From the NCBI GenBank assembly GCA_049515895.1, contig JBEKTQ010000006.1, positions 32,001 through 96,000 on the forward strand: a stretch of DNA of 64,000 nucleotides, read 5' to 3'. Of this stretch, positions 1,870 to 49,981 are shown in pieces. This DNA comes from Candidatus Bathyarchaeia archaeon (GTDB taxonomy: Archaea > Thermoproteota > Bathyarchaeia > Bathyarchaeales > Bathycorpusculaceae). The position numbers and the translations under genes are program-made. Under the pieces are notes generated by a model. It saw only the letters and a program-made list of their open reading frames with translations, searched no databases and was not told the DNA's origin. Each line of letters opens with the position of its first letter. Position 1 is the first letter of the stretch.

Positions 1870-3381
1870 ATGGTTGAATCAGTAGACAATCCTCTTATTG
1901 CTTACAATGTTCTAGAGAAAAAGATCCTTAAGGCTGGCCTTTGCACGGCATGCGGAGCCTGCGAAGTTGCCTGTCCTGTGCAGGCATTGCAGGTTGAAGG
2001 CGAAAAGGTTAAACGGTTGTGTGATTGTTCAAAGGAACTTGACCTTTGCCCTATCTGCTACGAGATTTGTCCTCACTCTGACAGACTTCTTCTAAGGAGT
2101 TTGCGTCCGGTTTCAGATGCGCCTTTCAGAAATGAAGCATTAGGGTACTATAGGAAAATGCTTCTTGCACAAGGGGCAGACAAGAAGTTGAGAGAACATA
2201 GCCATGGTGCCGCTGTGGTCACTTCACTCTTGAAGTACGGGATTGAGGAGAAGATTTTTGATAGCGCAATTGTTTCGGAAGGCGAGGCCGAGAATCCGTC
2301 CAAACCAAAGCCTTCAGTCGCGACTGTCCCTGACGATATTCTTTCAGCTACTGGCTCGAAGTTTTTCCCTTCAGCGGTTGCAAGAGCATTTGGAAGTGCC
2401 GTGACCGGATATGGAAAAACAAAGATAGCATTTGTGGGTGTACCCTGTCATATTTTGGCGCTTCGCAAGATGGAAGCGTGGCAACATAAGTTCAGTGCGA
2501 ACCTGAAAATAGCGATTGGGCTCTTTTGTTTCGGATCCTTTTCGTTGACTCCGATTCTGGAATATATAACAAAAACTTACAAAATCAAGCCCACTCAAAT
2601 TAGGTCCATGCACCTTTCGAAAGAGTTTGTCCTAGAAACAGAAAAAGGTGAAATAAGGATACCGATGGAAGAAGTCGAGCAGCATATTCTGCAAAGTTGC
2701 CGGACGTGTACGGATTTCGCTTCTGAGGTGGCTGACATCTCAGTCGGAGGCGCTTATCCATTAACAGATTGGTCAATTGTCATTATCAGAACTAAAGCGG
2801 GCGAAGACTTCTTCTATGGCGCTGTTGAAAAGGGCATAATCAATACGTGGGCCATAGAAGGAGAGCCGAGAGTCTTTGAGCGCGTGGTCAAAGCCGCATT
2901 AACTAAGAGAACCAATGCTCTCAAAGCAGTCAAAAAATTGGAGAAACAATATGGCTTCCTCCCTGTCCGGCTCTTGAGAGATACAGAAACACTTGCCAAA
3001 GTGAAAGTCAAAGACATAATGAAACCCCATGTCAAAACGGTCCCAAGCAATATGACAGTCACTCAACTTCTTGAGTTGATGGCAAAACATCAATACACTG
3101 GATATCCAGTCACAAATGAAAGCGGCGAACTTACTGGCACAGTGACAATTGAAGAAGCGTACACAGTGGACAAGAAAGACAGAGACAAAACCCTTGTAAG
3201 TGCTATAGCCAGACCAAACCTCGACGTTGTTTATCCAGAAGAAACGGCTCTCGACGCATTAAGGAAAATGAGTAAGCAAGAAACTGGAAGAGTTATAGTG
3301 CTTGATCCATCGGACCCAAAGAAACTGATAGGTATAGTCACTAAAGCGGATCTAATGCATGCACTCGTGAGCTGCAGCTAG
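1870..3381 (+). CDS. Coenzyme F420 hydrogenase/dehydrogenase beta subunit (FrhB/FpoF family) with N-terminal ferredoxin domain and C-terminal CBS pair
   Basis: CTACGACEVACP and CPICYEICP ferredoxin motifs; GVPCHI, GLFC, CRTCTDF and DISVGG FrhB motifs; C-terminal KVKDIM...YTGYPV...LIGIVTKADL is a CBS pair. Confidence 0.88.
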   Translation: MVESVDNPLIAYNVLEKKILKAGLCTACGACEVACPVQALQVEGEKVKRLCDCSKELDLCPICYEICPHSDRLLLRSLRPVSDAPFRNEALGYYRKMLLAQGADKKLREHSHGAAVVTSLLKYGIEEKIFDSAIVSEGEAENPSKPKPSVATVPDDILSATGSKFFPSAVARAFGSAVTGYGKTKIAFVGVPCHILALRKMEAWQHKFSANLKIAIGLFCFGSFSLTPILEYITKTYKIKPTQIRSMHLSKEFVLETEKGEIRIPMEEVEQHILQSCRTCTDFASEVADISVGGAYPLTDWSIVIIRTKAGEDFFYGAVEKGIINTWAIEGEPRVFERVVKAALTKRTNALKAVKKLEKQYGFLPVRLLRDTETLAKVKVKDIMKPHVKTVPSNMTVTQLLELMAKHQYTGYPVTNESGELTGTVTIEEAYTVDKKDRDKTLVSAIARPNLDVVYPEETALDALRKMSKQETGRVIVLDPSDPKKLIGIVTKADLMHALVSCS

Positions 3382-3607
3382 TGGTCGGCTAAGAGAATCA
3401 AGGATTCTTGGCAGCGTAAAGTGCGATTGCATTATTGGGAAAAGGCTGTGGCGCAGAAGATTTACGGTGGACCTAACCCTCGACTTAGTGACAAGACTGC
3501 CCTCGAGTGTTCGGTTATCAATCAAGCCGACAGCAATTGCGTGGTAAACGGAGCCTTCCACTAAATTCAACTTTATTTGATTGTTTCGGCGGTTTTGGGT
3601 AGATAAA

Positions 3608-3614
3608 CTTATAT
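3608..3614 (+). promoter_or_regulatory. Putative TATA box of the hydrogenase operon
   Basis: AAACTTATAT about 100 nt upstream of the nuoA-like start in an AT-rich spacer. Confidence 0.35.
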
Positions 3615-3713
3615 GCATTTAGCACGCCGCATGGATATAATAAATGCAAATTTAACGCTATCTTGGGGAGTAGTTGGTGTTAAGGAACAATATCATGAAT
3701 GGAGAGATGCCGC

Positions 3714-4058
3714 ATGTTTGAAGAAGCCCTCGAAGAAGCAGTCATCGCATTTGTTTTAATATTCATATCAACATTCGTGATTTACAGTTTAGGCAAAAGA
3801 TCAGCGCCTAAGACCGCTATAAGCGAAAATGAGCAGGCATCTTACGCGTGTGGAGAGAAGGCTTCGTTCTTCGGGTTAAAAATCAACGTATCCTTGTACA
3901 AATATCTGATTTATTTTGTTATCTTTGACGCTTCCGTTTTGTTGATTGCTTTTGCTTCTTTTTCTCTGACGGGCACTAGTCCGCTTTACCTTTTCCTATA
4001 TCTCAGTATAATTCTAGCTGCGCTCTTTATTCTTTTAGAAGGAGGAAGCGGAGATTGA
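3714..4058 (+). CDS. nuoA: Complex I-like membrane subunit A (NuoA/FpoA-like)
   Basis: Three TM segments, YACGE motif, YFVIFD. ATG at 3714 preferred over 3699. Confidence 0.85.
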   Translation: MFEEALEEAVIAFVLIFISTFVIYSLGKRSAPKTAISENEQASYACGEKASFFGLKINVSLYKYLIYFVIFDASVLLIAFASFSLTGTSPLYLFLYLSIILAALFILLEGGSGD

Positions 4059-4600
4059 TTGCTAACGCAGTTACATGGGCACGTGTAAAATCCCCCTGGG
4101 TTTTACACTTCAACTCAGGCGCCTGCAACGGATGCGATATAGAAATAGTCGCACTGCTCACACCAAAATATGATGTTGAACGCTTCGGAATAAAACTTGA
4201 GCCTTCGCCACGCCACGCCGACGTTCTGCTAGTGACAGGCTGTGTCACCCAGCAATGTGCAGAACGGCTAAAACGAATATATGATCAGATGCCGCAGCCC
4301 AAATTCGTGGTAGCCATCGGTGCATGCGCATGCTCAGGCGGAGTCTTTGAAGGAAATTACAACGTGGTCGGCGGCGCAGATAAGGTGATTCCAGTTACAG
4401 CTTACATACCTGGATGCCCCCCGCGTCCAGAAGCACTAATGGACGGAGTGGTTAAGCTTCTAAATGCGCTAAGTCCGCCTAAACCGAAGAAGCAGCCCAA
4501 GCAGCCGAAGCAGCCTAAACAAGAAGAACCTGTTGAAACACCAACTCCGGTTGAGATTAAACCAATAATTGAGGAGTCAAAAGTAGATGCCAAAAAGTAA
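4055..4600 (+). CDS. nuoB: Group 4 [NiFe]-hydrogenase small subunit (NuoB-like) with Pro/Lys/Gln-rich tail
   Basis: GACNGCDIEI, SPRHADVLLVTG, GACACSGG and IPGCPPRPE motifs; TTG start; PKQ repeated at the C-terminus. Confidence 0.92.
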   Translation: MIANAVTWARVKSPWVLHFNSGACNGCDIEIVALLTPKYDVERFGIKLEPSPRHADVLLVTGCVTQQCAERLKRIYDQMPQPKFVVAIGACACSGGVFEGNYNVVGGADKVIPVTAYIPGCPPRPEALMDGVVKLLNALSPPKPKKQPKQPKQPKQEEPVETPTPVEIKPIIEESKVDAKK

Positions 4601-6161
4601 AATAGATATTATTAAAGTAATCGAAAGCAAGCTTGAAAATAAAGTCCAAATTCAACTAGGCCAACTCGGCAAGGCCGTTGTAGTCACAAACAATGGTTTC
4701 CACAGAGACGTTATGAAAGCCATGGTAGATGCTGATGAGTATACTGCCATTTCAGCCATCACAGGTTTAGACCTAGGAGCAAACTTAGGCGTCTTATATC
4801 ATGTTCGCACTTCAAACTCTTTCGTAACCCTACGCGCAGAAGTGCCCAAGGATAACCCTAAAATTCAAACCTTAACCGATATTGCTCCCAGCGCAACCTT
4901 TCATGAACTGGAAGTAACAGACCTTTTGGGTGTGGTTTTCGAAGGTAACCCTCTTCCCGGGCATTTCGTCTTGTCGGAATATTGGCCTCAAGGTGTGTAT
5001 CCGTTAAGAAAAGATGTCAAAGCAAGCGAAGTAAAACTTAACCCGCCACCGGCCGAAGATACGGAAGAACCTGACATGGGAAGAGTCGTAAAAATCATCG
5101 TAGGACCCCAGCATCCAGCGTTGCTTGAGCCAGAAAAATTCGCAGTGACAGTTGATGGAGAAACAGTAACAAAAGTTGAGCCCCGAATCGGCTATGTTCA
5201 CAGAGGCATTGAGAAGGCAGCTGAGTCACGTACTTACCTGCAGGATGTTTACTTGGTTGAGCGCATCTGCGGAATATGCAACGTGATACACGGTTGTAAC
5301 TTTGTCGAAACCGTCGAAAAGATATTAAAAACAGAAGTACCTTCAAGAGCCAAGTACCTTCGAGTAATAGCTTTAGAACTTAACAGGTTGCACAGTCACC
5401 TTTTGACCTTGGGTCACGCAGGTCTAGAAATTGGTTACGAGACTCTTTTCCAATATTTCTGGCGAGACCGTGAACCGATCATGGATCTCATCGAATTAAC
5501 CAGCGGCAACCGAGTTTACTCATCACTTATGACTATAGGCGGCGTAAGACGGGACATCAGAGAAAGCGACATTCCCAAAATCAAAACAACCTTGGTAGAT
5601 TTGAGAAAGAAGCTCCCGTTCTACAGGAAAATCTACGAAGAAGAGCCTTCAATCAGAGCGCGCATGAAAAACGTAGGCGTGCTCAAACGCGAAGACGCTT
5701 TAAAACTCGGCGTTGTCGGTCCAGTTGCCCGTGGATCAGGCGTAGATATTGACGTACGCAAGGATGAGCCTTATGAAGCATATGCTGAGATTCCGTTCAA
5801 AGAGATAGTTTACACCGCCGGCGACACTTGGGCAAGGATGAACGTTCGCATGGACGAAGTTGAAGAAAGCATCAACATAATCGAGTACGCGCTTGACCAC
5901 TTGCCAGCAGGTCCCTTCAGGGTAAAAGCGCCGAGGGCTGTTCCTGCAGGCGAAGCGTGCAACCGTGTTGAAGCACCAAGAGGCGAACTATTCGCTTACG
6001 TTAGAAGCAACGGCACAGCTTTTCCTGAACGTGTCAAAGTTCGCACACCAACCTACGCTAACATTCCCGCATTCCTTAAGACGGCAATAGGTGAAAGCAT
6101 TGCTGACGTTCCTCCAAACTTTGTTAGCTTAGACCCCTGCTTCTCATGTACAGATAGGTGA
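4587..6161 (+). CDS. Fused NuoC + NuoD-like [NiFe]-hydrogenase large subunit
   Basis: N-terminal NuoC domain (ELEVTDLLGVVFEG...YPLRKD); GPQHP and GYVHRGIEK; L1 RICGIC and L2 DPCFSCTDR Ni-binding motifs. Confidence 0.92.
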   Translation: MPKSKIDIIKVIESKLENKVQIQLGQLGKAVVVTNNGFHRDVMKAMVDADEYTAISAITGLDLGANLGVLYHVRTSNSFVTLRAEVPKDNPKIQTLTDIAPSATFHELEVTDLLGVVFEGNPLPGHFVLSEYWPQGVYPLRKDVKASEVKLNPPPAEDTEEPDMGRVVKIIVGPQHPALLEPEKFAVTVDGETVTKVEPRIGYVHRGIEKAAESRTYLQDVYLVERICGICNVIHGCNFVETVEKILKTEVPSRAKYLRVIALELNRLHSHLLTLGHAGLEIGYETLFQYFWRDREPIMDLIELTSGNRVYSSLMTIGGVRRDIRESDIPKIKTTLVDLRKKLPFYRKIYEEEPSIRARMKNVGVLKREDALKLGVVGPVARGSGVDIDVRKDEPYEAYAEIPFKEIVYTAGDTWARMNVRMDEVEESINIIEYALDHLPAGPFRVKAPRAVPAGEACNRVEAPRGELFAYVRSNGTAFPERVKVRTPTYANIPAFLKTAIGESIADVPPNFVSLDPCFSCTDR

Positions 6162-6165
6162 CCTG

Positions 6166-7152
6166 ATGATTGACTTTTGGCTGATCTTAAGAATACTAAT
6201 CTTTCCAGGCTTTGCGTTCATCTTGCTTCTAACTTTATTCTGCGATTGGATTGAGCGAAAATTAGAAGCTCGCATTCAGAATCGTGTAGGTCCGATGGTT
6301 GCAGGCCCAGCTGGGATTCTTCAACCGTTTGCCGATTTCATTAAGCTGTTGACAAAAGAAGACATCGAACCGAAGAATTCTAAGAGAGTTGTTTTCACGT
6401 TTGCCCCACTCGTAGCCTTTACCATCATGGTTTTCGCCATGTGCTTCCTGCCTGTGGACGGTTCAAGTGTGCTTTCAAGCACAGGATTCAATGGCGACTT
6501 GATTGTTATTTTAGCGTTTGTTACAATCGCAAACTTTCTCTTGTTTCTTTCCGGATGGGCATCATGCAATCCTTATGGCACCATCGGCTCAGCAAGAGTT
6601 CTAACTCAGTTCCTCGGTTACGACATACCGCTTTTTCTAATTGCCCTGACACCCGCCTTTATCGCTGGGAGCTTAGGGATATTCGCAATTGCCGCAAGTC
6701 AATCCATTCCATACATCATATTGGCGCCGTGGGCTTTCGTGCTTTTCATCGTAGCTTTGCAAGCAGAGCTCGAAAAAGACCCCTTCGATGTTCCTCATGC
6801 AGAAAGCGAAGTAGTTGGCGGATTGGAGACTGAGTACACAGGGGGCAAACTGGCTTTTCTTCATTTGACACGCGATGTTCAGATTGTTTTCGGCTCAGCC
6901 TTGGTGGTTGAATTGTTCCTTGGCGGACCATATGGTCCAGTGTTCTTTGGATTGCCAGCGTTCTGGTACTCGTTGTGGTTTGTAATCAAACTGCTAGCGG
7001 TTGTGGTGGTTACCGAGTACGTGACAACTCTTTTTGCAAGGTTGCGCATCGACCAGGTTTTGTCAGCTAACTGGAAGATAGTCCTGCCGGCAGCCGTTTT
7101 GTCGCTAATGCTTACAGTAGTAATGGTTACTTGGGTGTACCCCTTGGTGTGA
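6166..7152 (+). CDS. nuoH: Complex I-like membrane subunit H (NuoH/FpoH-like)
   Basis: ERKLEARIQNRVGP, QPFADFIKLLTKE and PFDVPHAESE motifs. Confidence 0.92.
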   Translation: MIDFWLILRILIFPGFAFILLLTLFCDWIERKLEARIQNRVGPMVAGPAGILQPFADFIKLLTKEDIEPKNSKRVVFTFAPLVAFTIMVFAMCFLPVDGSSVLSSTGFNGDLIVILAFVTIANFLLFLSGWASCNPYGTIGSARVLTQFLGYDIPLFLIALTPAFIAGSLGIFAIAASQSIPYIILAPWAFVLFIVALQAELEKDPFDVPHAESEVVGGLETEYTGGKLAFLHLTRDVQIVFGSALVVELFLGGPYGPVFFGLPAFWYSLWFVIKLLAVVVVTEYVTTLFARLRIDQVLSANWKIVLPAAVLSLMLTVVMVTWVYPLV

Positions 7153-7158
7153 TAAAGA

Positions 7159-7542
7159 ATGGTCAAAAAATCACGAATATCTCCGATGTGGAAAAGAACC
7201 GTTTCGCACATATTTACGAAACCTGCAACAACCAAATACCCGTTTGTTAAGCCGCAGCTTGCTGAAGATTTCCGAGGTAGGCAAGTATTCGACATCAATT
7301 TATGCGTTAGTTGCGGTCTGTGCAGCAGGGATTGTCCAGCCAAAGCGATTGAAATGGTTGAAGTCGAGGGTAAGAAACGCCCTCAGTTCCTTCTTGACAG
7401 GTGTATCTTCTGTTACCAATGTGCCGAAAGTTGCCCTAGAAACGCGATAAAAAGCTCAGTTTTCTACGAGTTGGCTACCACTGACAAATCATCATTGACT
7501 ATGAAGCCTCAAGCAACTTGTGAGAAGGATGCTCCTCAATGA
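7159..7542 (+). CDS. nuoI: 2x[4Fe-4S] subunit I (NuoI/FpoI-like)
   Basis: T-x-x-YP...FRG; CVSCGLCSRDCP and CIFCYQCAESCP. Confidence 0.92.
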   Translation: MVKKSRISPMWKRTVSHIFTKPATTKYPFVKPQLAEDFRGRQVFDINLCVSCGLCSRDCPAKAIEMVEVEGKKRPQFLLDRCIFCYQCAESCPRNAIKSSVFYELATTDKSSLTMKPQATCEKDAPQ

Positions 7543-8000
7543 TACTTGAAATCCTCTCGGTTGGCTTGCTTGTTTCCGCTTGCTTGGCTCTGTTCCTTGA
7601 CGAAGTCATATACTCTGTTGCTGCTCTATCTGGGACTTTTCTTTTCACAGCATTACTCTACGCTGTAAACGGCGCGGTTTACGCGGCGATTTTCCAGTTC
7701 GCCGTCGGTGTAGGCACATTAGCAATCTTGTTTTTGTCAGGAGAAATGTTAAGCAATAAATCCACAAAGAAAACACCGCCTGCAAAGACTTTCGCCTTGA
7801 TTGGCGCAGGAGTCGTTTTATCATTACCCGCGATCTTTCTGTCAATTTCCAGTTCATCAGGAAACTATTCGCCGGTGTCTTTTGGGGAGGCCCTTTGGAA
7901 TTTTAATGGACTGGACGTTGTCCTACAAGCCTTAGTCATCTTGACTGTCACGCTTGGAATCGCTATCGTTCTATATGAGCAAAGGAACGGTGGGAAATAA
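7539..8000 (+). CDS. nuoJ: Complex I-like membrane subunit J (NuoJ-like)
   Basis: Hydrophobic, AIFQFAVGVG motif, located between I and K. Confidence 0.75.
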   Translation: MILEILSVGLLVSACLALFLDEVIYSVAALSGTFLFTALLYAVNGAVYAAIFQFAVGVGTLAILFLSGEMLSNKSTKKTPPAKTFALIGAGVVLSLPAIFLSISSSSGNYSPVSFGEALWNFNGLDVVLQALVILTVTLGIAIVLYEQRNGGK

Positions 8001-8314
8001 TGGACTTTGTCATACTATCAATTGCAATGCTGGCAATCGGAATCTACGGGTTATTAACTAATCGCCAACTCTTGAAAGTCTTCATTTCAATAGAGCTGAT
8101 CGCCACTGCCGCAACACTGAATTTTGTAATGCTTGCCTCTTCTGCAGGTCAAGGTTTAGGACAAGCCCTTCTGATACTAGCGTTTTCAACCGACACCGCA
8201 GTCAGCGCAGTAATTTTGGCGTTGCTAGTCATCGTAACGAAAAAGTATGGGACAAGTAACATCAATGAAATACTAAAAACGCAGGAAAAAACTGAAGTGG
8301 AGGCTGAAACATAA
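8000..8314 (+). CDS. nuoK: Complex I-like membrane subunit K (NuoK-like)
   Basis: GIYGLL...ISIELI...LNFV; 104 aa with three TM segments. Confidence 0.85.
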   Translation: MDFVILSIAMLAIGIYGLLTNRQLLKVFISIELIATAATLNFVMLASSAGQGLGQALLILAFSTDTAVSAVILALLVIVTKKYGTSNINEILKTQEKTEVEAET

Positions 8315-10251
8315 TGGCGTTTGGTATTACTATCTCTGCATGGCTAGTTTGGATAGTACCACTTATTGCATGCGTCTTCGTTCCATTGATCGCAAAAAAA
8401 GGCGACAAAATTCGAAACTACTTTGTGATTGCCGTCTCAGTTGTAACAGCAGCCTTGGCGTTATCCCTTGTCCCAAGCGTCTTTTTCGGCAATGGGCAAG
8501 CTACGGAATCAACAATCGCTTGGATTTCAGGCATCAACGCTGGAGTGTACATTGATCCGCTGTCGGTTTTGTTCACGTGCCTTGTTGCCTTCTTCGGGTT
8601 AATTATCGCCATTTACTCTTGGGGTTACATGAAAGGCGAAGAAGGATTGTCACGTTACTACTTCCTGATTCTGCTTTTCATAGGCTCAATGATTGGCCTT
8701 GTGATCACAGACAACTTGCTTCAAATGTTTATTTTCTGGGAAATGGTAGGCTTATGCTCTTATGCTTTAGTTGCTTTCTGGTTTAAACGGCCTCCATCGG
8801 TTAGTGCAGGCAACAAAGTTTTTATTATGACGCGTATCGGCGACGTATCCTTGCTTGCTGCAATAGGCATACTTTACGCGGGTCCTTTAGTTGGCGGGCA
8901 GGCAATTGGCTCATTCAGCTTCCGTGGAATAATCGCTGCTCTTACATCCGCCGCGGGCGCTGGAACTTTGAATACGGGACTCTTGGTTGTTGTGTTCTTT
9001 TTGGTTTTAGGCGGTGCTATCGCAAAATCAGCCCAGCTTCCGTTGTTCACTTGGCTCTACAGCGCAATGGAGGCTCCAACTTCAGTCAGCGCTCTATTGC
9101 ATGCTGCCACAATGGTCAAGGCAGGTGTCTATCTTCTTGCAAGGTTCATACTCATAGCTACAGTAGCTACACCGCTAATTGTTGCGCTTCAACCGCTCTG
9201 GTTCCCAACTGTCGCTTGGATAGGTGTTTTAACGGCGTTAGTTGGCGCCACACTCGCAATCACTACAACCGACATCAAAGGAGTACTAGCATACTCAACT
9301 GTTAGCCAAATCGGTTTCATGATGGCTGGCTTAGGCGCAGCTGTTGCGGGAGCAGCGACAGTCGGCTGGTTTGCAAGCTTATTCCACATGGTAAGCCATG
9401 CTTTCTTCGAAGGCCTTGGATTCCTCCTTGCGGGAGGCATCATCCACGCACTTGGGACAAGAGACATGCGATTAATGGGCGGCTTAAGGAAAGCTATGCC
9501 TGTAACCTTCATTTTGATGCTCATAATGGTCATAACGACAAGCGGTCTGCCACCGTTCGCCGCTTTCTTCAGCAAAGGCTTAATCATCTCAAGCGTAACC
9601 AACATCGGAACCTACGCCAGCCTGATACAGGCAATTCTGCTTTATGCCACCGCTGCGATTACGTTCGCTTACGTGATCCGGATGTTAAGCTTGGTTTTCA
9701 TGGGTAAAGAATCAGAGCATTTAGAAAAGCAGCATCCCCATGAAGCTCCACAAGTCATGCTGATTCCAGGTGCAATCCTCGCAGGGTTATGCGTTATTTG
9801 GGGGTTAGGGATGCCCTTAGTTGTGAACTTTATGCATTTAAACAGCCTTGGAATCTCGCTGCTTGGCTCATTCACTGACATAGAAACACCAATCTTCTTG
9901 GCGCTGCTGGTTCCGACAGGTTTGCTTGTGTACTGGGCTTACTACAAGAACGTCATGGGAATAAGAAGTGTTGGTGGCGGTTCAAATCCAATTGCTACGA
10001 TGCTGAAACACGGTTTCTTCTTTGATGACCTATACTACGCCGTAGCCAAGGGAATCGGAAAGTTTTCTGACGGCCTCAAATATGTCGACGATTCAGCGAG
10101 TCTGGCGTTAGACTCCTTTGCAGGTGGGTTTGTGCGTCTCTCTTTAAAGCTGAAAAAAGTGCCATCTACGACGGTTCAAAATTATATCGCCGCCGGAATA
10201 ATTGGTTTCATACTAATTGTAGTCCTGATAATATTAACGGTAGGGGTGTAA
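8314..10251 (+). CDS. nuoL: Antiporter-like subunit L (NuoL)
   Basis: FWEMVGLCSY, KSAQLPLFTWL, AMEAPTSVSALLHAATMVKAG, LAYSTVSQ and HAFF motifs. Confidence 0.93.
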   Translation: MAFGITISAWLVWIVPLIACVFVPLIAKKGDKIRNYFVIAVSVVTAALALSLVPSVFFGNGQATESTIAWISGINAGVYIDPLSVLFTCLVAFFGLIIAIYSWGYMKGEEGLSRYYFLILLFIGSMIGLVITDNLLQMFIFWEMVGLCSYALVAFWFKRPPSVSAGNKVFIMTRIGDVSLLAAIGILYAGPLVGGQAIGSFSFRGIIAALTSAAGAGTLNTGLLVVVFFLVLGGAIAKSAQLPLFTWLYSAMEAPTSVSALLHAATMVKAGVYLLARFILIATVATPLIVALQPLWFPTVAWIGVLTALVGATLAITTTDIKGVLAYSTVSQIGFMMAGLGAAVAGAATVGWFASLFHMVSHAFFEGLGFLLAGGIIHALGTRDMRLMGGLRKAMPVTFILMLIMVITTSGLPPFAAFFSKGLIISSVTNIGTYASLIQAILLYATAAITFAYVIRMLSLVFMGKESEHLEKQHPHEAPQVMLIPGAILAGLCVIWGLGMPLVVNFMHLNSLGISLLGSFTDIETPIFLALLVPTGLLVYWAYYKNVMGIRSVGGGSNPIATMLKHGFFFDDLYYAVAKGIGKFSDGLKYVDDSASLALDSFAGGFVRLSLKLKKVPSTTVQNYIAAGIIGFILIVVLIILTVGV

Positions 10252-10255
10252 TGAA

Positions 10256-11803
10256 ATGACGTTTGCTCTTCTGGCAGTATTTGCAATTCCAACTCTAAGC
10301 ATACCATTTGTATACTTCACTGGAAAGAAATCCCCTAAAGCGGCAGCGATCTTCATCGCTTTAATTGCCCTAGTTAACATAATGTTACTCTTGACAACCG
10401 TTCCAACGATTCTAAACAGTTCAAGTCACCAGTACGTTGAACCCTACACGTGGATTTCTGTAATTTCAACGTCATTCTCACTTTTCGCGGATGGCATAAG
10501 CGTTTCAATAGCCATAGTAAGCCTCATTCTTATTCTCGTCGCGGCTGTGTTCTCAATCTCTTACATGGCTGGAAAAAAGAACTTGCAGGTCTTCTATGCG
10601 TTGCTATGCATGCTTACAGTAGGGTCTGTGGGCGTCTTCCTAACTTCTAACCTTATCCTATTCTACTTCTGCTGGGAACTAATGCTTGTCCCCGCGTACT
10701 TCATAGTGGGCGAATGGGGTTACAAAGACTCATACAAGAAAGCATTCAAATTCTTCATATACACGCATGCAGGCGCCGTCTTCGTGCTCTTAGGCATCGG
10801 AGCAACTTACATAGCGACTGGAACCACGGATATGATAGTGGCTCAACACGCTTTATTGACAGCTAGTCCAGTTCTCATCAAATGGATTCTCATTGCCTTA
10901 ACCATAGGATTCGCCGTCAAAATGGCTGTTATACCGGTCCACATGTGGCTGCCCGATGTTTACTCAGAAGCTCCAGCACCAATGTCAGCGCTATTAGGCG
11001 GTGTTATGATAAGTGCAGGAGCTTACGCAATGCTTAGACTTTCACTTGGAATGGTTTTTCCAGCAGTCGGATTAACATTTGGAACCAATTTTCTGCATGC
11101 GCTAGCCATTGTCGGCGTACTTTCCGCCTTCTTTGGGTCACTCGTATCGTTAGTTTCAACAGACATTAAACGGCTTATTGCCTACTCAAGTATCGCCCAT
11201 ATGGGTTACATAATGTTCGGGCTTTCACTCTTCCCTGCAAACGCCGCCGCTGGAGTAGCTGTACTTCTGGCCTCATCCATCGCGATAACCGGAACTGTCC
11301 TTCACATTATCAGTCATGCACTAAGCAAAGGCCTCCTCTTCCTCACCGCAGGAGGAGTCATGAAGAAAACTGAAGAAAGAGACATCCGCAAAATGGGTGG
11401 ATTAGCATCCAAGATGCCGTTCACAGCGGTGTCATCAATAATAGCAGCGTTAAGCATCGGTGGAGCGCCGCCTTTCGCATGCTTCATCAGTGAATTTCTA
11501 ATATTTGTAGGCGCTTTCCAAATAATAAAGGGAGATTCATTTTACATCATACCCACCGCTCTCATGCTTATAGCGACGGTGCTTTCGCTTGCATACGTAC
11601 TCAGATTCACCTCAAACGTTTTCCTTGGTCAATCCAAGGACGAGACAGACAAAATAATCGAAGAGGACAAAGCGAAAAAGAAAACCTTTGAGGTTTCAAA
11701 CTACATGAAAATATCTTTCGCCATCTTGGTGGTTTTAATTGTCCTTGTAGGGATCTACCCGACATTCTTCCTGAACCTAATCCAGACGGTGAGACTTAAC
11801 TGA
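10256..11803 (+). CDS. nuoM: Antiporter-like subunit M (NuoM)
   Basis: WELMLVP, VKMAVIPVHMWLPD and IAYSSIAHMG motifs. Confidence 0.9.
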   Translation: MTFALLAVFAIPTLSIPFVYFTGKKSPKAAAIFIALIALVNIMLLLTTVPTILNSSSHQYVEPYTWISVISTSFSLFADGISVSIAIVSLILILVAAVFSISYMAGKKNLQVFYALLCMLTVGSVGVFLTSNLILFYFCWELMLVPAYFIVGEWGYKDSYKKAFKFFIYTHAGAVFVLLGIGATYIATGTTDMIVAQHALLTASPVLIKWILIALTIGFAVKMAVIPVHMWLPDVYSEAPAPMSALLGGVMISAGAYAMLRLSLGMVFPAVGLTFGTNFLHALAIVGVLSAFFGSLVSLVSTDIKRLIAYSSIAHMGYIMFGLSLFPANAAAGVAVLLASSIAITGTVLHIISHALSKGLLFLTAGGVMKKTEERDIRKMGGLASKMPFTAVSSIIAALSIGGAPPFACFISEFLIFVGAFQIIKGDSFYIIPTALMLIATVLSLAYVLRFTSNVFLGQSKDETDKIIEEDKAKKKTFEVSNYMKISFAILVVLIVLVGIYPTFFLNLIQTVRLN

Positions 11804-11815
11804 AGGTGACTTGCG

Positions 11816-13333
11816 ATGGTTGAAATTATAGATGTCGTATTGCCGATATTCACTTTAGTAATAGCTGCATTGCTGACTATTCCAGTGTTTAGGCTAATAA
11901 GAAAGAGCAATTACCAGACAGCCTTGACCTTAGGCTGGTTCATATCCGTGTTTGCAGTTGCGGGCGCAACAGTGGCTAACTTGGCGCTTAACTATTACAG
12001 TACACCTTCGCCAGGCATTGTTAGTTTAGGCTTAGGTGGCAGTTCCTCAGCGATTTTCTCCAGCGCCTTCTTGGTGGACGCCATATCAATTTTCATGGCA
12101 ATAATCATTGTCGCAATAAGCGCTGTAGTCGTGATTTACACTGTGTTCGCTGTTGACTCTACCGCCCGACCGACGGAACGGTACTTTGCCGTTATGCTAA
12201 TGACGGTTGCGGGCTTGCTGGGCGCTGTCTTGGCAGGCGACCTCTTAACCCTTTTCATTTTCTGGGAAGCCGCAACTGCAGGTGCAGCTTTCTTAATGTT
12301 ATTCAAGAAAAACGTATTTTCCATCAATGCGACACTGAAATATCTAATTGTGGTTATCATTGCGTCGGCTTTCGTGGTCTTTGGGCTTTCCTTAGTTTAT
12401 GTTTTAACTGGAACGCTGAACTACATGGCAGTTGGCCAAGCTTTAACAACTTTAAGCAATAACCACTTGCTGATCATAGCGTTCATCTTTATAGCAGCTG
12501 GCTACGCTATTGAGGCTGCAATTGTGCCTTTTCACTTCTGGCTTCCCGATGCTTACACCGCCGCTCCGGCGTCGTCGGCGGCTTTCCTCTCAGCCCTTGT
12601 TGACCAAGGCAGCTATTACATCCTGATACGAGTACTCTTGTATATTATGGTTCCAAAAGGTCCAAATGCAGTGTTAGACTGGACTGTAATGTTAGCGTTC
12701 ATGGCAGCCTTAGCCATGATTGTCGGCAACTTGTTTGCACTAATACAAACCGATGTAAAACGCTTAATTGCATACATCTGTGTTGCCGACGTAGGCTACA
12801 ACCTGGTAGCCATAACAAGCGTATCTTCACTAGGCATACTTGGCAACCTTTACTTCTTCTTAATCGGCGGCATCACGACAGCCCTCGCTTTCATGACAGT
12901 AGGCATTATAAACAAACATGGATTCAGAAGCATGGATGACTTCTCAGGGCTAGGCAAGAAAATGCCGCTTGTATGTTTAGCCTTGGTGATGGCTGGGCTA
13001 TCATTTGCTGGTGTTCCTCCATTCGGTGGGTTCATAGGTAAATATTTGGTATTCTCCGCCGCAATAGAAGCCAACTTAAGCTGGCTAGCAGTGATAGGTG
13101 TTTTGACAAGTGTCCTTCAAACCGCGTTCTTGTTCAGATTAATCTACGTCATGTACGGAAAGAAAGCCAAAGACGAAACATCCGTAAAAGAATCAAAACG
13201 CATACTCGTCCCAATCTTCATCCTCGCAGGCACACTAATAGTCGTAGGCCTATACCCGCAAATCGTCCTCAGCTTAATCCACCCAGTCGTTAACCAGCTC
13301 AAAACAATAATACCAACACTACCCACAATCTAA
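11816..13333 (+). CDS. nuoN: Antiporter-like subunit N (NuoN)
   Basis: VPFHFWLPDAY, GNLFALIQTDVKRLIAY and GVPPFGGFIGK motifs. Confidence 0.88.
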   Translation: MVEIIDVVLPIFTLVIAALLTIPVFRLIRKSNYQTALTLGWFISVFAVAGATVANLALNYYSTPSPGIVSLGLGGSSSAIFSSAFLVDAISIFMAIIIVAISAVVVIYTVFAVDSTARPTERYFAVMLMTVAGLLGAVLAGDLLTLFIFWEAATAGAAFLMLFKKNVFSINATLKYLIVVIIASAFVVFGLSLVYVLTGTLNYMAVGQALTTLSNNHLLIIAFIFIAAGYAIEAAIVPFHFWLPDAYTAAPASSAAFLSALVDQGSYYILIRVLLYIMVPKGPNAVLDWTVMLAFMAALAMIVGNLFALIQTDVKRLIAYICVADVGYNLVAITSVSSLGILGNLYFFLIGGITTALAFMTVGIINKHGFRSMDDFSGLGKKMPLVCLALVMAGLSFAGVPPFGGFIGKYLVFSAAIEANLSWLAVIGVLTSVLQTAFLFRLIYVMYGKKAKDETSVKESKRILVPIFILAGTLIVVGLYPQIVLSLIHPVVNQLKTIIPTLPTI

Positions 13334-13373: not shown

Positions 13374-14615
13374 TTATTTTCTTATTTGTCCGTTGCCTAA
13401 AACAACGTATTTTGTGGTTGTCAAGTGTTGTACGCTCATGGGTCCCCTTGCGTGAAGTTTCTGGGTGCTGATGCCGATTTCCGCACCTAAACCGAACTGG
13501 TTACCATCGGTGAACCTTGTAGAAGCGTTCCAGTAGACGGCTGCTGAGTCGATTTCGCGTATGAACCGCATGGCTTTATCGAAGTCTGCTGTGAGTATGG
13601 AGTCTGAGTGGTGCGTTCCGTACTTGTTGATGTGCGCTATGGCTTCGTCGAGGTCTTTGACGACTTTTACGCCTATAATGAGGTCTAAGTATTCGGTGTA
13701 CCAGTCCTTCTCAGTTGTCGCTTTCACATCGGGAACGATGATGCGGGTTTCCTCGTCGCCCCTAACTTCCACGCCTTTTTCCCTGAGCGCCGCAATCGCA
13801 ATGGGCAGGTACCTCTTGGCGATTTTGCTGTGGACCAGAAGCTTCTCGGCAGCGTTGCATGTTCCGGGTCTTTGGCATTTTGCGTTTATTACGATGGGTG
13901 TTGCTTTTTCGAGGTCCGCGTCTTCTTCAACATAAACGTGACAGTTGCCCGTTCCCGTTTCAATAACGGGGATACGCGAAGTCTCAACTACCGTTTTTAT
14001 TAATTCTGCGCCGCCTCTGGGAATAAGAACGTCAATGTACTCGCGCATCCGCATCAGCTCCTCAGCCAATTGGCGGTCAGCTGACTTCACCACCTGCACT
14101 GCATCAACAGGCACGCTGGTTCCTAATAGCGCGTCTCTTAGAACCTCGCCTATAGTCACGTTTGAGTTCAGCGCATCTGATCCGCCTCTCAGGATAACGG
14201 CGTTTCCGGACTTAATGCAGATTCCAGCCGCATCGGAAGTCACATCAGGCCGCGACTCGTAAATGATCCCAATAACGCCCAGGGGAACTCGAACCTGGCT
14301 GATTATCAACCCATTGGGTCGTATCCAAGTGTTGATTATTGTGCCGATCGGGTCAGGCAAAGCTGAAACTTCACGAAGACCATTAGCCATGGCTTGAATT
14401 TTACGTTGGTCAAGAGCTAAACGGTCGATCAAAGCGGTTTTGAGCCCTCTATGCACCGCAGCGTCAACATCAGCCAAGTTGGCAGTCAAAATCTTCTCAG
14501 TGTTCGCTTCCAAAGCGTTTGCCATTCTGCAAAGCGCAGTGTTCTTAGCTTCCGATGTAAGCTTAGCCATTTCAACTGAGGCAGCTTTGGCTTTTTTGCA
14601 CAGTTCAATTATCAT
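13374..14615 (-). CDS. proA: Gamma-glutamyl phosphate reductase
   Basis: IYESRP, CNAAE, NASTRFTDG and GISTQKLHARGP motifs. Confidence 0.96.
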   Translation of the reverse strand: MIIELCKKAKAASVEMAKLTSEAKNTALCRMANALEANTEKILTANLADVDAAVHRGLKTALIDRLALDQRKIQAMANGLREVSALPDPIGTIINTWIRPNGLIISQVRVPLGVIGIIYESRPDVTSDAAGICIKSGNAVILRGGSDALNSNVTIGEVLRDALLGTSVPVDAVQVVKSADRQLAEELMRMREYIDVLIPRGGAELIKTVVETSRIPVIETGTGNCHVYVEEDADLEKATPIVINAKCQRPGTCNAAEKLLVHSKIAKRYLPIAIAALREKGVEVRGDEETRIIVPDVKATTEKDWYTEYLDLIIGVKVVKDLDEAIAHINKYGTHHSDSILTADFDKAMRFIREIDSAAVYWNASTRFTDGNQFGLGAEIGISTQKLHARGPMSVQHLTTTKYVVLGNGQIRK

Positions 14616-15739
14616 TTTTCTTCCCCGATCAAATGGATATTTCTATGCTCCACTGCCTCTTTAGGTTTATCTGCCCCAAGCTTCTTTTGTACTTCAGTTA
14701 CCTGACAGCCTTTAATCAGGTTTAAGTCGCCGCTGGAAAAGTTGGGATTTCCTTTGGCGAATTCAACCTTGCACTCATCCCTGATGCTGACAACGTCGCC
14801 AACGTTAAACTGTCCCACCACACGGGTTATGCCCACAGGCAAAAGGCTTGAGCCCTCAAGAATAGCTTTTTTTGCGCCCGCGTTAACGTAGATTTCCCCT
14901 TTGACAGCGGCGCCGTAAGCTATCCAACGTTTAACAGCTGACATTGGGTTCTGAGGTTTGAAGAAGGTGCCCACGTCTTTTCCCGCAAGAATGTCAACTA
15001 TGACATTTTCTCTTCGGCTGTTAGCTATGACCACGGGTATGCCGCATGAAGTTGCGATTTCAGCAGCTTTGATTTTGCTTTGGATGCCGCCTTTGCCCAG
15101 CTTGCTTTTACCGCTGAGTGAACTTTTGAGTTCAGGCGTTATTGCTTCAACCGTTTTAATTAGCTGTGCACCGGGTTCCCGTGGGTGCGCTGTGAATAAG
15201 CCGTCAACGTCTGAGAGTATAATGGTCATATCGGCGCCGATCGCGTTTGCCAGCAAAACTGAGAGGATGTCGTTGTCGCTGAAATTTTCTTTGTAGCCTT
15301 CCTTCTGACGAAGTTCAGCCACTGAGGTTACGTCGTTCTCGTTGATTATCGGGATAACTCCTGTTTTCAGAAGCATGTTAAGCACATTGCACATGTGCAC
15401 ATACGACGCTCTGTTGGAAAGGTCCTCCGCTGTAAGCAGTATTTGCGCAGCCTTCAAACCATTAGCCTTGAAAAGTTCACGGTACTTCGCCATCAGAACA
15501 CTTTGACCCATCGCAGCTGCAGCCTGCTGAAAAACTACATCGTTGGGTTTAGGTGGAATGCCGAGCTCCGCTATTCCTGCAGCCACTGCCCCTGAAGTAA
15601 CAAGAACCACCTTGTCGCCTTGCTTGGTTACAGCTGCAATTTGGCTGGTTAGTTTCTTCATTTCTTCATCGTCAAGGTTTCCTCCGTCGGCCGTTATGCC
15701 GCTAGTTCCAACCTTAACAACTATCAATCTTGAAGGCAT
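14612..15739 (-). CDS. proB: Glutamate 5-kinase with PUA domain
   Basis: VVKVGTS, VTSGAVAAG, INEND and DND motifs; C-terminal PUA (SLLPVGI). True start is probably ATG 15739. Confidence 0.95.
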   Translation of the reverse strand: MPSRLIVVKVGTSGITADGGNLDDEEMKKLTSQIAAVTKQGDKVVLVTSGAVAAGIAELGIPPKPNDVVFQQAAAAMGQSVLMAKYRELFKANGLKAAQILLTAEDLSNRASYVHMCNVLNMLLKTGVIPIINENDVTSVAELRQKEGYKENFSDNDILSVLLANAIGADMTIILSDVDGLFTAHPREPGAQLIKTVEAITPELKSSLSGKSKLGKGGIQSKIKAAEIATSCGIPVVIANSRRENVIVDILAGKDVGTFFKPQNPMSAVKRWIAYGAAVKGEIYVNAGAKKAILEGSSLLPVGITRVVGQFNVGDVVSIRDECKVEFAKGNPNFSSGDLNLIKGCQVTEVQKKLGADKPKEAVEHRNIHLIGEEK

Positions 15740-15911
15740 CAGATAATCCCTTTTAAAGGTTAGAATTGAGATACGCGGCGGTTGCTTAAAAATGCAACCA
15801 AAAAAAACTGAATACTTTTTTGACTGGTTTGTTAAAATTTCTAATTTAATCATACCGTTGCCAAAACGTATTAGAAAAACATATAAGGAAAATGGTCATG
15901 GCTTTTAGAAC

Positions 15912-19955: not shown

Positions 19956-20096
19956 ATGTTACCGCGAATTCATCGAACCAAGTTTGCTGTGATCTTGATA
20001 TTTTCTATTGCTGTTTTCTTTGGTGCATTGGCTGGGGCATATGCTGGCTGGATTCTAGAAGGACAATTGTACTTGCGCAAAAACGTCAAAATCTGA
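19956..20096 (+). CDS. Small single-TM protein (46 aa), not in ORF track
   Basis: MLPRIHRTKFAVILIFSIAVFFGALAGAYAGWILEG..., preceded by GAGG. Confidence 0.45.
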   Translation: MLPRIHRTKFAVILIFSIAVFFGALAGAYAGWILEGQLYLRKNVKI

Positions 20097-20396
20097 CAAG
20101 GAACTCTAACAGTGACCTCTTGTTTCTAGCCAACTGGCAAAGCGAAACTGACCAGGATGATTTTTCTTTTGAGGTTAACTAGATTTTTAGTTATAATTGA
20201 AAAAGAGGTTCTAGCTATGGTGCTTTCATGGGTTTTACCTCTTTCCGCAGATGTTCGGTCTGCAATAGGGGTTAACCATTTTTTTTGTGTTTAATCATTA
20301 TTCCTCCTCTTCGAAAGGGGTTTTGCCGTCCAAGGCAGACGAGAAGTTGACAGAACCCAAAAGAAAAATGGATTTAAAATAAGGTAAGTAGGTTAC

Positions 20397-20529
20397 TCAC
20401 TTTTTTGTATGCTTCTCTTCACAGTGCTTCTCATAATCTTTCTCAGTGGCATAAACTTTCTTTATCAGTTGGGCATTGATACTTTCCTTCTTTAGTCTTA
20501 ATTGGTTTGGGATGGCTTTTCTTTGACAA
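20397..20529 (-). pseudogene. Frameshifted small C2H2-like zinc finger protein
   Basis: GGGGTGA SD plus TTG; YQCPTDK in one frame continues as KVYATEKDYEKHCEEKH in the +1 frame. Confidence 0.6.
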
Positions 20530-20708
20530 ATAATCACCCCCAAAAAAGAGAGAGATTCAGAGAAGGATTGCCCAAACAGCATTTTATATCTATGCGATTG
20601 TACTAAGCATATAATTTGAGTACCATTGTTTCTGTTTATTTAACGTCACCTACCTAAAAATTAGTTAATTCCTGCCTTTTTGTGAAAAAAAGGCATCTAA
20701 ACATTGCA

Positions 20709-21125
20709 GATACTGTTAAGTTACCCAGCATAAAAAAAGGTGGGTTAGAATTTTATTCAAAGTATTTAGTAAGGACTTTTTGCCCTAGTGTCGTAAGCTT
20801 CCAACCCGTTCCAGTGTATTCGATAGCACCTGACCTTTCCAAATATCCTAACATTTCACCTGTCTTAGCATCTTGGTGTCCTATGATTTTAGCAATTTCC
20901 TTAGCTGTTTTTGGGGACGTCTGAATTGCGCGAGCTATGGAAAGATAAGCTGCTGTCTGAAACCAATCAAGTACGTCTTTTTCACTCATTTGTGTTTTCA
21001 CCTTACAACCTATATGGCTAGGTTTCAATTTAATTCTTGTGAAAGAAGTAGGAATAATAAGTTTTAATGTTGGGTAACTTAACTTAACAGTATCAACATT
21101 GGATAAAAATTATACTGTTAAGTTA
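20709..21125. repeat. Three copies of ATACTGTTAAGTTA (20710-20723 +, 21080-21093 -, 21112-21125 +)
   Basis: Exact 14-bp matches seen directly. Confidence 0.8.
20753..20989 (-). CDS. Small winged helix-turn-helix protein
   Basis: SPKTAKEIAKIIG...LGYLERSGAIEY...WKLTTLG; AAGGTGA SD before ATG 20989. Confidence 0.75.
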   Translation of the reverse strand: MSEKDVLDWFQTAAYLSIARAIQTSPKTAKEIAKIIGHQDAKTGEMLGYLERSGAIEYTGTGWKLTTLGQKVLTKYFE

Positions 21126-21177
21126 TTTGACCCAAGGATCCTGGGGATAATTTATCCTTTTTGCGTCTGTATTCGTT

Positions 21178-21417
21178 TTAGGATTTTTCTTCATCTATTT
21201 CGTGGAAAATTATTTCTTTAATAACGCATTCAGGTAGTGTGACTTTAGTTCCTTCAAATACTGTCTGCGTTTTTGTTTTTGTTATTTCTAATTGTGGTTC
21301 AAATGTTATGAATGCCCCCTGAATTTCGTAACTTCGTGCAATGTAGATTTTTTCATCCAGTTTAGAATCTGTAAAAATTGTGTAGCCTAAACTGTACTTT
21401 TTTGGTTTAATTGCCAT
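21178..21417 (-). CDS. Small hypothetical protein
   Basis: 79-aa ORF with an AGG/TATA-like upstream region in an AT-rich island. Confidence 0.55.
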   Translation of the reverse strand: MAIKPKKYSLGYTIFTDSKLDEKIYIARSYEIQGAFITFEPQLEITKTKTQTVFEGTKVTLPECVIKEIIFHEIDEEKS

Positions 21418-21511
21418 AAACCTACTTCCAATATTTTAGATTAACAATGAGCTATATAGCGGTTAAGGTGGCTACGACCATTACCGAGCAAATTTATGGG
21501 CTTACCTTTTT

Positions 21512-21784: not shown

Positions 21785-21993
21785 AGACAGCTATTGTAGG
21801 ATAATTGTTTTTAAGAGCTTGGTCAATGCTCTCAGTGTATACATAGTGGAACAAGTGAGCAGACGAAAATTTACAGAAAAAACGACCTGACAAAGATTTT
21901 ACAGAACCACAGCTTGCCATTTATAAAGGCTTTATAAATAGATGATGTTATATACTCCCTGTATCATTTAAATACTCAAGCCCGTGAAAAATC

Positions 21994-35949: not shown

Positions 35950-35976
35950 TTTTGTTTTTCTCCTTTAATATTATTT

Positions 35977-37373: not shown

Positions 37374-37401
37374 AAAAGTGCGCCGGCGCGCGCGTTACTC
37401 T

Positions 37402-49980: not shown

Positions 49981-49981
49981 G

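Follow-up and report, generated by a model that had tools for sequence, protein, structure and literature searches.

Genes at the locus

The 64,000-nucleotide stretch of DNA analysed here, referred to as the window, was taken from a Candidatus Bathyarchaeia archaeon (assembly GCA_049515895.1, contig JBEKTQ010000006.1, positions 32,001 to 96,000 of the forward strand) and carries near its start a plus-strand gene for a protein of 503 amino acids (aa; 1870..3381; P0001), which is documented by an open reading frame (ORF) and its translation, by Pfam, and by AlphaFold2 and Foldseek results. The protein, named FrhB-CBS throughout, joins a ferredoxin domain and an FrhB-type domain to a pair of CBS domains. 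Its gene is followed in the same orientation by an 11-subunit Fpo-like [NiFe] hydrogenase operon (Hfo; 3699..13333, plus strand), recognised by Pfam, NCBIfam and the NiFe L1/L2 motifs, and the relation between the two is the subject of this study.

The operon contains, all on the plus strand, nuoA (3699-4058), nuoB (4055-4600), nuoCD (4587-6161; 524 aa), nuoH (6166-7152), nuoI (7159-7542; 127 aa, 2x[4Fe-4S], the predicted docking partner of FrhB-CBS), nuoJ (7539-8000), nuoK (8000-8314), nuoL (8314-10251), nuoM (10256-11803) and nuoN (11816-13333). NuoCD displays the sequences RICGIC and, at its C-terminus, DPCFSCTDR, and both [NiFe] ligand motifs are invariant in 20/20 orthologues; the name complex I-like NiFe hydrogenase, under which a first-pass annotation made from the sequence alone had listed the downstream operon, is therefore justified. 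By its nuoABCDHIJKLMN gene set and the L1/L2 motifs of subunit D, the operon corresponds at sequence level to Hfo, defined in the available text of Loh, Herve and Brune 2021 (PMC7886697) as the 11-subunit Fpo-like hydrogenase (group 4g) of Bathyarchaeia.

The co-oriented FrhB-CBS gene and nuoA, which the first pass had placed about 330 bp apart, are separated by an intergenic gap of 317 bp (3382..3698, plus strand). The sequence of this gap contains T-runs and, before nuoA, a TATA-like stretch at ~3606-3616, where the first pass had noted a TATA-like box at about 3608. The ~150 bp before nuoA, TATA-like stretch included, still align with the close kin L003 and L006, which agrees with a putative promoter of its own for the nuo operon.

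The FrhB-CBS protein and its family

Pfam returned, within a single ORF, all of the ferredoxin, FrhB and CBS-pair domains previously assigned to the protein. The N-terminal 2x[4Fe-4S] ferredoxin domain (~residues 19-70; 1924..2079, plus strand), delimited by invariant cysteines and the predicted interface and forming the predicted docking face, gives a Fer4 match at residues 23-40. It is followed by FrhB_N and FrhB_C (residues 97-329; 2158..2856, plus strand), to which a [4Fe-4S] cluster, FAD and a putative F420 site are assigned from Pfam, invariant cysteines and PDB matches; the FrhB_FdhB_N match covers residues 97-172 (1.6e-12) and the FrhB_FdhB_C match residues 184-329 (5.9e-37). A long helix (residues 333-361) leads to the CBS pair or Bateman module (residues ~372-500; 2983..3369, plus strand), identified by Pfam, conserved residues and fold matches, in which two stretches from residue 380 (1.9e-25) provide the two tandem motifs that define such a pair.

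Twelve cysteines are invariant in the family (alignments of 28-29 orthologues): C25/28/31/35 and C53/60/63/67 fit two ferredoxin-type [4Fe-4S] clusters, the second motif having a family-specific C53-x6-C60 spacing, and C193/220/277/280 fit the FrhB cluster. In the CBS pair, residues G423, G488, K492, D494 and L495 are invariant, CBS2 contains a conserved G488-x-x-T-K-x-D494, and a corresponding acidic residue is found in CBS1. CBS-pair regulated enzymes such as IMP dehydrogenase and the CBS-domain pyrophosphatase likewise have two C-terminal CBS motifs, the signature G-h-h-T-x-x-D being located in CBS2. We take this signature (G488...D494) to be an adenosyl-ligand motif; the CBS pair is likely to bind a ligand of this kind and to modulate activity or assembly.

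A word-indexed search yielded at least 827 relatives of FrhB-CBS. The best 120 are all ~500 aa long with domains identical to those of the window protein, and the named organisms among them are Bathyarchaeota/Bathyarchaeia, bar one labelled 'Candidatus Li...'; with more than 120 orthologues of the same four-domain architecture, the gene can hardly be a chance ORF. When residues 1-365 served as query, an exhaustive search returned 3663 matches at E<=1e-3, and among the best 150 of these the CBS tail was present in only three full-length cluster representatives and four fragments. In a FastTree phylogeny (167 rows, 350 columns; two rows shorter than 380 aa dropped), the FrhB-CBS family and nine near representatives form one clade with 100% local support, set apart from 78 other ferredoxin-FrhB proteins that include the second FrhB homologue of the window's genome.

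The earlier label FrhB/FpoF-like holds for the Fer4-FrhB_N-FrhB_C layout seen by Pfam; it does not extend to FpoF itself, whose equivalog cut-off is not reached (102 vs 475 bits). Model scores rule out a true FpoF identity, and the FpoF model at E<=1e-75 had no match among the 123 nearest representatives scanned. FdhB was also considered and ruled out: FdhB chains are distant (E 4e-13 and 1.4e-11), the top-scoring matches being to F420-reductase plug-in subunits and to FrhB. Assignment to a glutamate-synthase-linked type was rejected, no such neighbour being present among 34 flanking genes scanned at unlinked loci.

Closest solved relatives

The AlphaFold2 model of the 503-aa protein, built on a 78-sequence alignment, reached a pLDDT of 91.9 and a pTM of 0.91. 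Its top Foldseek match is 8riu_B (E 6.6e-30, TM to target 0.85, rmsd 2.1 A over 352 columns), followed by 8rja_E, and 8RIU_B is also the best match among solved structures in the sequence search (E 1.1e-39). FrhB chains come next in the Foldseek results (TM 0.87-0.91; 0.88-0.91 for 9r51_B, 6qii_B and 4ci0_C), and below them Fsr, HCAR and FdhB/Elp. Modelled residues 372-503 fold as a CBS pair, with TM values of 0.79-0.88 to solved pairs that contain AMP, ATP or S-adenosylmethionine (SAM).

According to the available text of Lemaire et al. 2024 (PMC11493965), 8RIU_B (the zeta subunit of CO dehydrogenase, CODH) and 8RJA_E (FwdI) are F420-reductase subunits of Ca. Ethanoperedens thermophilum, which anchor by their N-terminal ferredoxin domain to CODH and to formylmethanofuran dehydrogenase (Fwd), respectively, and rewire an otherwise ferredoxin-dependent enzyme to F420; both complexes reduce F420 in vitro. 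Like FrhB-CBS, they consist of an N-terminal 2x[4Fe-4S] ferredoxin domain and an FrhB-type [4Fe-4S]/FAD domain. FrhB-CBS, which is known here from sequence alone, differs in being only ~28% identical to them, in having a membrane-bound group 4 [NiFe] hydrogenase instead of CODH or Fwd as predicted partner, and in carrying a CBS pair in place of their short C-terminal dimerisation extension. The two subunits are the closest mechanistic precedent, that of an FrhB-type plug-in rewiring a ferredoxin-type enzyme.

Linkage to the hydrogenase genes

Gene order was scored by tblastn, with the proteins of the window, at 80 loci from species-representative genomes. The FrhB-CBS gene is located upstream of and co-oriented with the nuo genes, as in the window, at 27/80 loci, is divergent from nuoA at 4/80, lies 64-228 bp 3' of nuoN at 16/80, and is unlinked (nuo genes absent from at least 3 kb of both flanks) at 17/80, while the flanks of the other 16/80 are too short for a decision; linkage is thus found at 47/64 decidable loci. 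A set of 33 metagenome loci represents distant family members, 43-55% identical to the window protein: 16 copies follow nuoN, 10 follow nuoI, two are odd and nevertheless linked, and five have too little upstream sequence, which gives 28/33 linked to nuo genes, the genome and metagenome sets overlapping in lineage and their kin not being independent. The adjacency of FrhB-CBS and nuo genes first noticed in the window is therefore a conserved one, which occurs in several gene orders.

Two more distant genomes place the module within the operon proper. In G026 the order is nuoA-B-C-D-H-I-FrhB-CBS, with the module gene directly after nuoI, and in G043 it is nuoB-C-D-I-FrhB-CBS, with hypA, hypE, hypD, hypF and an Mrp/NUBPL-type ATPase gene just upstream. 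The NuoD proteins of both keep ERICGIC and DPCFACMDR and have a C-terminal extension. Three CBS-less copies of one genus also adjoin a rearranged nuo cluster. Across the family tree, the arrangement changed at least nine times and the state linked or unlinked at least seven times, and a linkage that has outlasted this number of rearrangements would be difficult to account for if the genes did not share a function. In the CBS-less sister clade (P0132 type), one cluster member of which is named Ca. Methanomethylicus, nuo genes within ~10 kb were found in 0/7 loci, so that linkage characterises the FrhB-CBS clade rather than Fer4-FrhB proteins in general.

Co-occurrence was scored in a sample of 201 genomes of the class with a completeness of at least 80%. 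Full-length FrhB-CBS is present in 23/201, and a NuoD/NuoCD match at E<=1e-90 in 22/23 of the module genomes vs 128/201 overall.

Some loci deviate from these patterns. The five-gene cluster of G043 is located at L083:6844-10805 on the minus strand, with a second nuoD-nuoB-nuoI cluster 11 kb away; nuoH or antiporter-like genes were not found by tblastn within ~10 kb of the cluster (L083, L096:1274-3034), which may encode a soluble hydrogenase of group 4 descent. The two odd metagenome copies (L126:5822-7114 and L129:2083-2796) are truncated and lie beside nuoCD or nuoB. A NuoI-FrhB gene fusion was considered for them and rejected, as the copies are instead N-terminally truncated, with C193 replaced by His; their ferredoxin domain is partly or wholly lost, and they may be decaying or functionally altered variants. 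Unlinked copies have recurrent neighbours of their own: an aconitase-family gene (~650 aa) lies directly 3' of the copies in L008, L009, L011, L020, L022, L030, L039 and L077, a NUBPL/Mrp-type P-loop ATPase gene two genes upstream in L008, L022, L030, L039 and L077, and an indolepyruvate/2-oxoacid:ferredoxin oxidoreductase (IOR)-like gene beyond the aconitase gene in L009 and L011. Some genomes have both an aconitase-side copy and a copy after nuoN.

Predicted docking on NuoI and NuoD

A complex of NuoCD (524 aa), NuoI (127 aa) and residues 1-345 of FrhB-CBS was predicted from 20-row alignments in matched locus order; to limit its size, the model comprised neither NuoB nor the CBS pair nor the membrane arm. 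The prediction gave an ipSAE of 0.64 (runs 0.65, 0.64 and 0.63) vs 0.23 for the best control. That mark was reached by 116/157 solved complexes and 2/215 mismatched pairs, counts that derive from chain pairs and hold only roughly for the alignments and the three-chain job used here. The runs agreed in at least 98% of their contacts, with a partner pLDDT of at least 78. A solved complex in which an FrhB-type protein binds NuoI is not known to us, and a score drawn from a memorised structure accordingly seems less likely.

On the NuoI side, the predicted interface involves residues 48, 50-54, 57 and 91-95 (loops around C49/C52/C55 and C92-P93) as well as 66 and 73, and on the module side residues 34, 36-39 and 55-62 (around C35-P36 and C60), 50-51 and 205-207; NuoD residues 441-451 lie opposite module residues 176-182. 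In the model, the Fe-S loops of NuoI and of the module would thus face each other, as an electron wire would need. The first pass had suggested a structure prediction with the B, CD and I subunits; the interface with NuoI and NuoD stands above the controls.

Two sequence features of the module, the motif EAW[QEH]HK (202-207) and the C53-x6-C60 insert, are clade-specific, are located at the predicted interface, and are absent from the 78 other Fer4-FrhB representatives; linked and unlinked FrhB-CBS copies keep them alike. On the hydrogenase side, module-bearing NuoI has C-x-S/G-C-G/S-L and module-bearing NuoD has F/Y/L446, K/R449 and A/V478, each in 20/20 A5/A6 rows and in 12/13 further genomes, for which the sequences compared include only part of NuoI in G078 and only NuoD in G186. 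Where the module gene is on another contig (G138, G150, G078, G099, G144 and G186), Hfo is still of the module type at the interface. Six module-less genomes of the same genus have NuoI C-x-x-C-[RHT]-V and NuoD I446 with D/E449. The main Hfo of G177 has interface residues of this module-less type; a NuoCD fragment with an internal stop (G177:C6:628266-629063) is located ~10 kb from its FrhB-CBS gene, the intact Hfo being 500 kb away, and the fragment looks like a decayed second Hfo locus.

A candidate F420-linked module of Hfo

We propose, with a probability of about 0.6, that FrhB-CBS is a peripheral iron-sulfur flavoprotein and an accessory, detachable F420-linked electron input/output module of Bathyarchaeial Hfo, which joins the NuoI clusters to a flavin site. 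The proposal is based on the domain architecture, the cofactor cysteines, the conserved linkage, the likeness in fold to dockable F420 reductases and the predicted interface; the co-occurrence with NuoD/NuoCD, the clade-specific motifs, the partner residues that track the module and the CofD and CofE matches also count in its favour. The N-terminal ferredoxin domain would dock on NuoI and NuoD, and electrons would pass between the NiFe site in NuoD, the N2-type cluster in NuoB, the two NuoI clusters, the two clusters of the ferredoxin domain, the FrhB [4Fe-4S] cluster, FAD and F420. Located at the membrane, the complex would catalyse H2 + F420 <-> F420H2, a reaction to which ion translocation may be coupled and which would supplement or replace the ferredoxin:H+ reaction that has been proposed for Hfo. 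Since NuoD keeps its NiFe ligands, the other substrate would be H+/H2 and not a quinone or phenazine. H2 and F420 are only ~60-70 mV apart at standard conditions, which is little for a complex with three antiporter-like subunits and speaks against strong ion pumping by this reaction alone. The direction may be set by how much H2 is present (its partial pressure), or module and ferredoxin may operate side by side, and the CBS pair would bind an adenosyl ligand and tune activity or assembly. We infer F420 as the substrate, the electron direction, the ion coupling, and the ligand and effect of the CBS pair.

The docking of the module on the hydrogenase, as the first-pass annotation had suggested, agrees with the linkage and the predicted NuoI/NuoD interface, and none of the findings named there as refuting it (adjacency not conserved, grouping with FdhB or glutamate-synthase-linked proteins, no predicted interface) was made; what had to be added is that the module is accessory. 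The other suggestions of the first pass, a flow of electrons from F420H2 into the complex (and not from H2 to F420) and a CBS pair that responds to energy charge, are hypothetical. Fused Hfo-type NuoCD occurs without FrhB-CBS in 19/38 sampled genomes, from which this accessory character follows, and in the window's own genus 6/12 genomes have Hfo (NuoCD 68-76% identical) without it. These absences weigh against the proposal, and so do the following points: 17/64 decidable loci are unlinked; the potential difference between H2 and F420 is small, as given above; clashes are possible at the predicted site because the model lacks NuoB, the CBS pair and the membrane arm, and the calibration of the docking score is the rough one described above; G062, in which no module was detected (85% complete), carries the module-type residues; and the correlation between these residues and the module may reflect two Hfo sub-lineages rather than an interface, kin not being independent.

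Several of these observations fit the chief rival explanation, namely that FrhB-CBS is a stand-alone soluble ferredoxin:F420 oxidoreductase, which would balance the pools of ferredoxin and F420 and would not dock stably; its gene would be found near Hfo only because the two enzymes share the ferredoxin pool and are co-regulated. A soluble activity of this kind of FpoF/FqoF is cited as a model for Bathyarchaeia and Korarchaeia in the available parts of PMC8407382 and PMC10667645, and the promoter-like region before nuoA, the 317-bp gap of the window, the 17/64 unlinked loci and the 19/38 genomes with Hfo and no module would all be accommodated. An in-operon place after nuoI or nuoN, with gaps of 60-230 bp and in many lineages, is however more subunit-like, and both the modelled NuoI/NuoD interface, which scores above the controls, and the clade-specific motifs situated at it argue for docking. 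We regard the soluble enzyme as unlikely, though it deserves the most attention among the alternatives.

Much less room is left for the view that the main partner is not Hfo at all and should be sought in the aconitase-family or IOR genes or in HdrABC. An aconitase-family gene does follow directly 3' in 8/16 unlinked loci with a downstream gene scanned, which counts against the proposed tie to Hfo, IOR-like genes occur beyond it in L009 and L011 and upstream in L063, and an Hdr link for a lone FrhB is proposed in the available text of Loh et al. (PMC7886697). The interface motifs are nevertheless kept in unlinked copies, and six genomes with unlinked copies, those named above, still carry, on another contig, an Hfo with module-type residues. 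No hdr genes were found by a Pfam scan among 34 flanking genes of the 17 unlinked loci, and aconitase is not a redox partner. A main partner other than Hfo is accordingly judged very improbable.

The nature of the acceptor has to be considered separately. In the window's genome, CofD (360 bits) and CofE (304 bits) are both over their cut-offs, and CofE is over cut-off in 185/201 genomes of the class, including 23/23 with the module; F420 handling is therefore plausible. CofE is located beside the genome's second FrhB homologue, a 361-aa open frame with no CBS domain; the coordinates noted for this gene set, CofD included, are G000 C29:14825-15568, C29:16629-17639 and C1:127222-128127.

The counter-evidence is that Fo synthase (CofG, CofH) was not found in the window's genome, rated 100% complete, that Mer was not found there over cut-off, and that the protein lies under all curated F420-enzyme cut-offs: those of the FpoF models (NF040616, 102.4 vs 475 bits; PRK09326, 108.4 vs 444), of frhB (TIGR03289, 165.3 vs 331.5 bits) and of the FrhB subfamily (PRK09325, 185.9 vs 269 bits). 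FrhB-family proteins with other substrates also exist, such as HCAR (5dqr, among the PDB sequence matches), which does not use F420, and Thermococcus Frh, reported in the available text of PMC13333549 to reduce rubredoxin. These points would suit a redox module, of Hfo or of another partner, that does not use F420 and has, for example, NAD(P), a small redox protein or a different flavin or deazaflavin as its acceptor. The presence of CofD and CofE, the latter near-universal in the class, speaks for F420, as does the activity of the solved proteins closest in sequence and in fold, every one of which reduces or oxidises F420. A luciferase-like (PF00296) gene, from a family that includes F420-dependent enzymes, is moreover located 3' of the module gene in G026. 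We thus hold a non-F420 acceptor to be improbable; the organism may salvage Fo or use another route.

A further-reaching proposal, which we put forward only tentatively and rate well below that of an accessory module, is that of an F420-dependent hydrogenase (F420H2:H+ oxidoreductase) made up of Hfo and FrhB-CBS, which would be bound to the membrane, translocate ions and have its module gated by adenylate status through the CBS pair. We know of no description of such an enzyme: the F420-reducing hydrogenase known so far is a soluble one, and those complex I relatives that are known to be linked to F420 no longer have the NiFe site. Some lineages of the G043 type may hold a soluble five-gene derivative (nuoB-C-D-I-FrhB-CBS).

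Comparison with known systems

Hfo has previously been described without such a module. According to the available text of PMC7886697, the FpoFO module is absent, a lone FrhB homologue may be linked to HdrABC, and the source of F420H2 is unclear. That Hfo has the same gene order and L1/L2 motifs as the window operon; FrhB is treated there as separate, in contrast to the linkage to the nuo cluster reported here. The accessible part of Qi et al. 2021 (PMC8407382) likewise describes Bathyarchaeial fpo without fpoFO and infers that F420H2 reoxidation is impossible, and in a 2024 paper (PMC11697101) a figure legend labels a distant gene "FpoF", the linkage not being discussed in the portions available. 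We found no description of an FrhB-CBS protein tied to Hfo in the full text of the literature available to the search, in which supplementary tables were not covered, and a full-text search for FrhB together with a CBS domain returned nothing. An FrhB-family enzyme with a CBS pair is not known to us.

FpoF/FqoF, like FrhB-CBS, is a ferredoxin and FrhB protein, and serves a complex I-like 11-subunit membrane complex; its gene is located apart from or inside the operon (Methanosarcina, Archaeoglobus). Its partner reduces methanophenazine or quinone and has lost the NiFe ligands, whereas the NuoCD of the window keeps RICGIC and DPCFSCTDR, and FpoF has, to our knowledge, no CBS pair. The FrhB of FrhABG (group 3a) shares the FrhB_N/FrhB_C fold, and the net reaction H2 <-> F420 proposed here would be the same. 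FrhB has no fused ferredoxin domain, a role that FrhG fills in Frh. It is encoded with FrhA and FrhG, while FrhB-CBS lies beside group 4/complex I-type subunits; the neighbours in the window are an acetyltransferase gene and nuoA-N, with no FrhA or FrhG at the locus (a genome-wide frhA search was not run). The hydrogenase Hfo and the FrhB-type plug-ins for CODH, Fwd, Fsr, Fdh and Fpo are therefore already known. Three features are new within the literature searched: an FrhB module shows a conserved association with a group 4 [NiFe] hydrogenase, it carries a CBS pair, and its gene can stand after nuoI in the operon.

Bathyarchaeia are among the most abundant archaea of anoxic sediments and peat, and their energy metabolism is inferred from genomes only. 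A conserved F420-type module tied to Hfo could explain how they link hydrogen to F420, and would change the models that, in the available text of PMC7886697 and PMC8407382, lack an F420 module. It would add a case of FrhB-type modules acting as plug-ins that rewire ferredoxin-dependent enzymes, and it offers a concrete candidate for biochemistry in existing enrichment cultures, with the CBS pair as a testable regulatory handle on a respiratory-type complex. If the membrane-bound F420-dependent hydrogenase were real, the archaeal Wood-Ljungdahl pathway of Bathyarchaeia would have in it a source or a sink of F420H2, and the enzyme would be a living model of an energy-converting hydrogenase that gains a cofactor-specific input module en route to Fpo and complex I.

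Intergenic region and other features of the window

At 23 of the 27 type-A loci, a gene for a DUF1622 membrane protein is located between FrhB-CBS and nuoA; it has no match in the window. The 317-bp gap of the window aligns with the two ends of the 1.1-kb gap of L003 (11470-12640) and L006 (2840-4000), minus ~800 bp, and from this alignment the ~800 bp holding the DUF1622 gene seem to have been deleted in the window relative to its close kin. Four divergent loci (L031, L050, L052 and L056) likewise have a DUF1622 gene immediately before nuoA, as does L062, where the module comes after nuoN, and the window's genome has another DUF1622 match on contig 15. Possibly, the Hfo operon begins with DUF1622, a gene not so far recognised as part of it. 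A minus-strand ORF of 88 aa (3352-3618), which sits in the intergenic gap, was treated as spurious.

Downstream of nuoN, the window encodes proA/proB and an H+-pyrophosphatase (H+-PPase; 13374-18146). An H+-PPase gene is also located 3' of the CBS-less copy in L094 (14715-16757), and in four Methanomethylicus-like loci (L087-L089 and L091) proA/proB are ~6 kb away from the sister gene that has no CBS pair. These surroundings may represent an ancient gene neighbourhood common to the loci.

Three long ORFs (873, 927 and 600 aa) at 33328-45085 have no Pfam match at E<=1e-10. On the minus strand, positions 48239-53164 hold a methanofuran-biosynthesis-like cluster with a 4-(hydroxymethyl)-2-furancarboxaldehyde-phosphate (4-HFC-P) synthase (PF04476), a pyridoxal phosphate (PLP)-dependent decarboxylase, and ATP-grasp, hydantoinase_A-like and amino-acid-kinase-like proteins; this gene content suggests the formylmethanofuran step of the archaeal one-carbon (C1) pathway in the window organism. 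A stretch of low GC content (0.35) at 20001-22000 precedes the gene for the TATA-binding protein (TBP).

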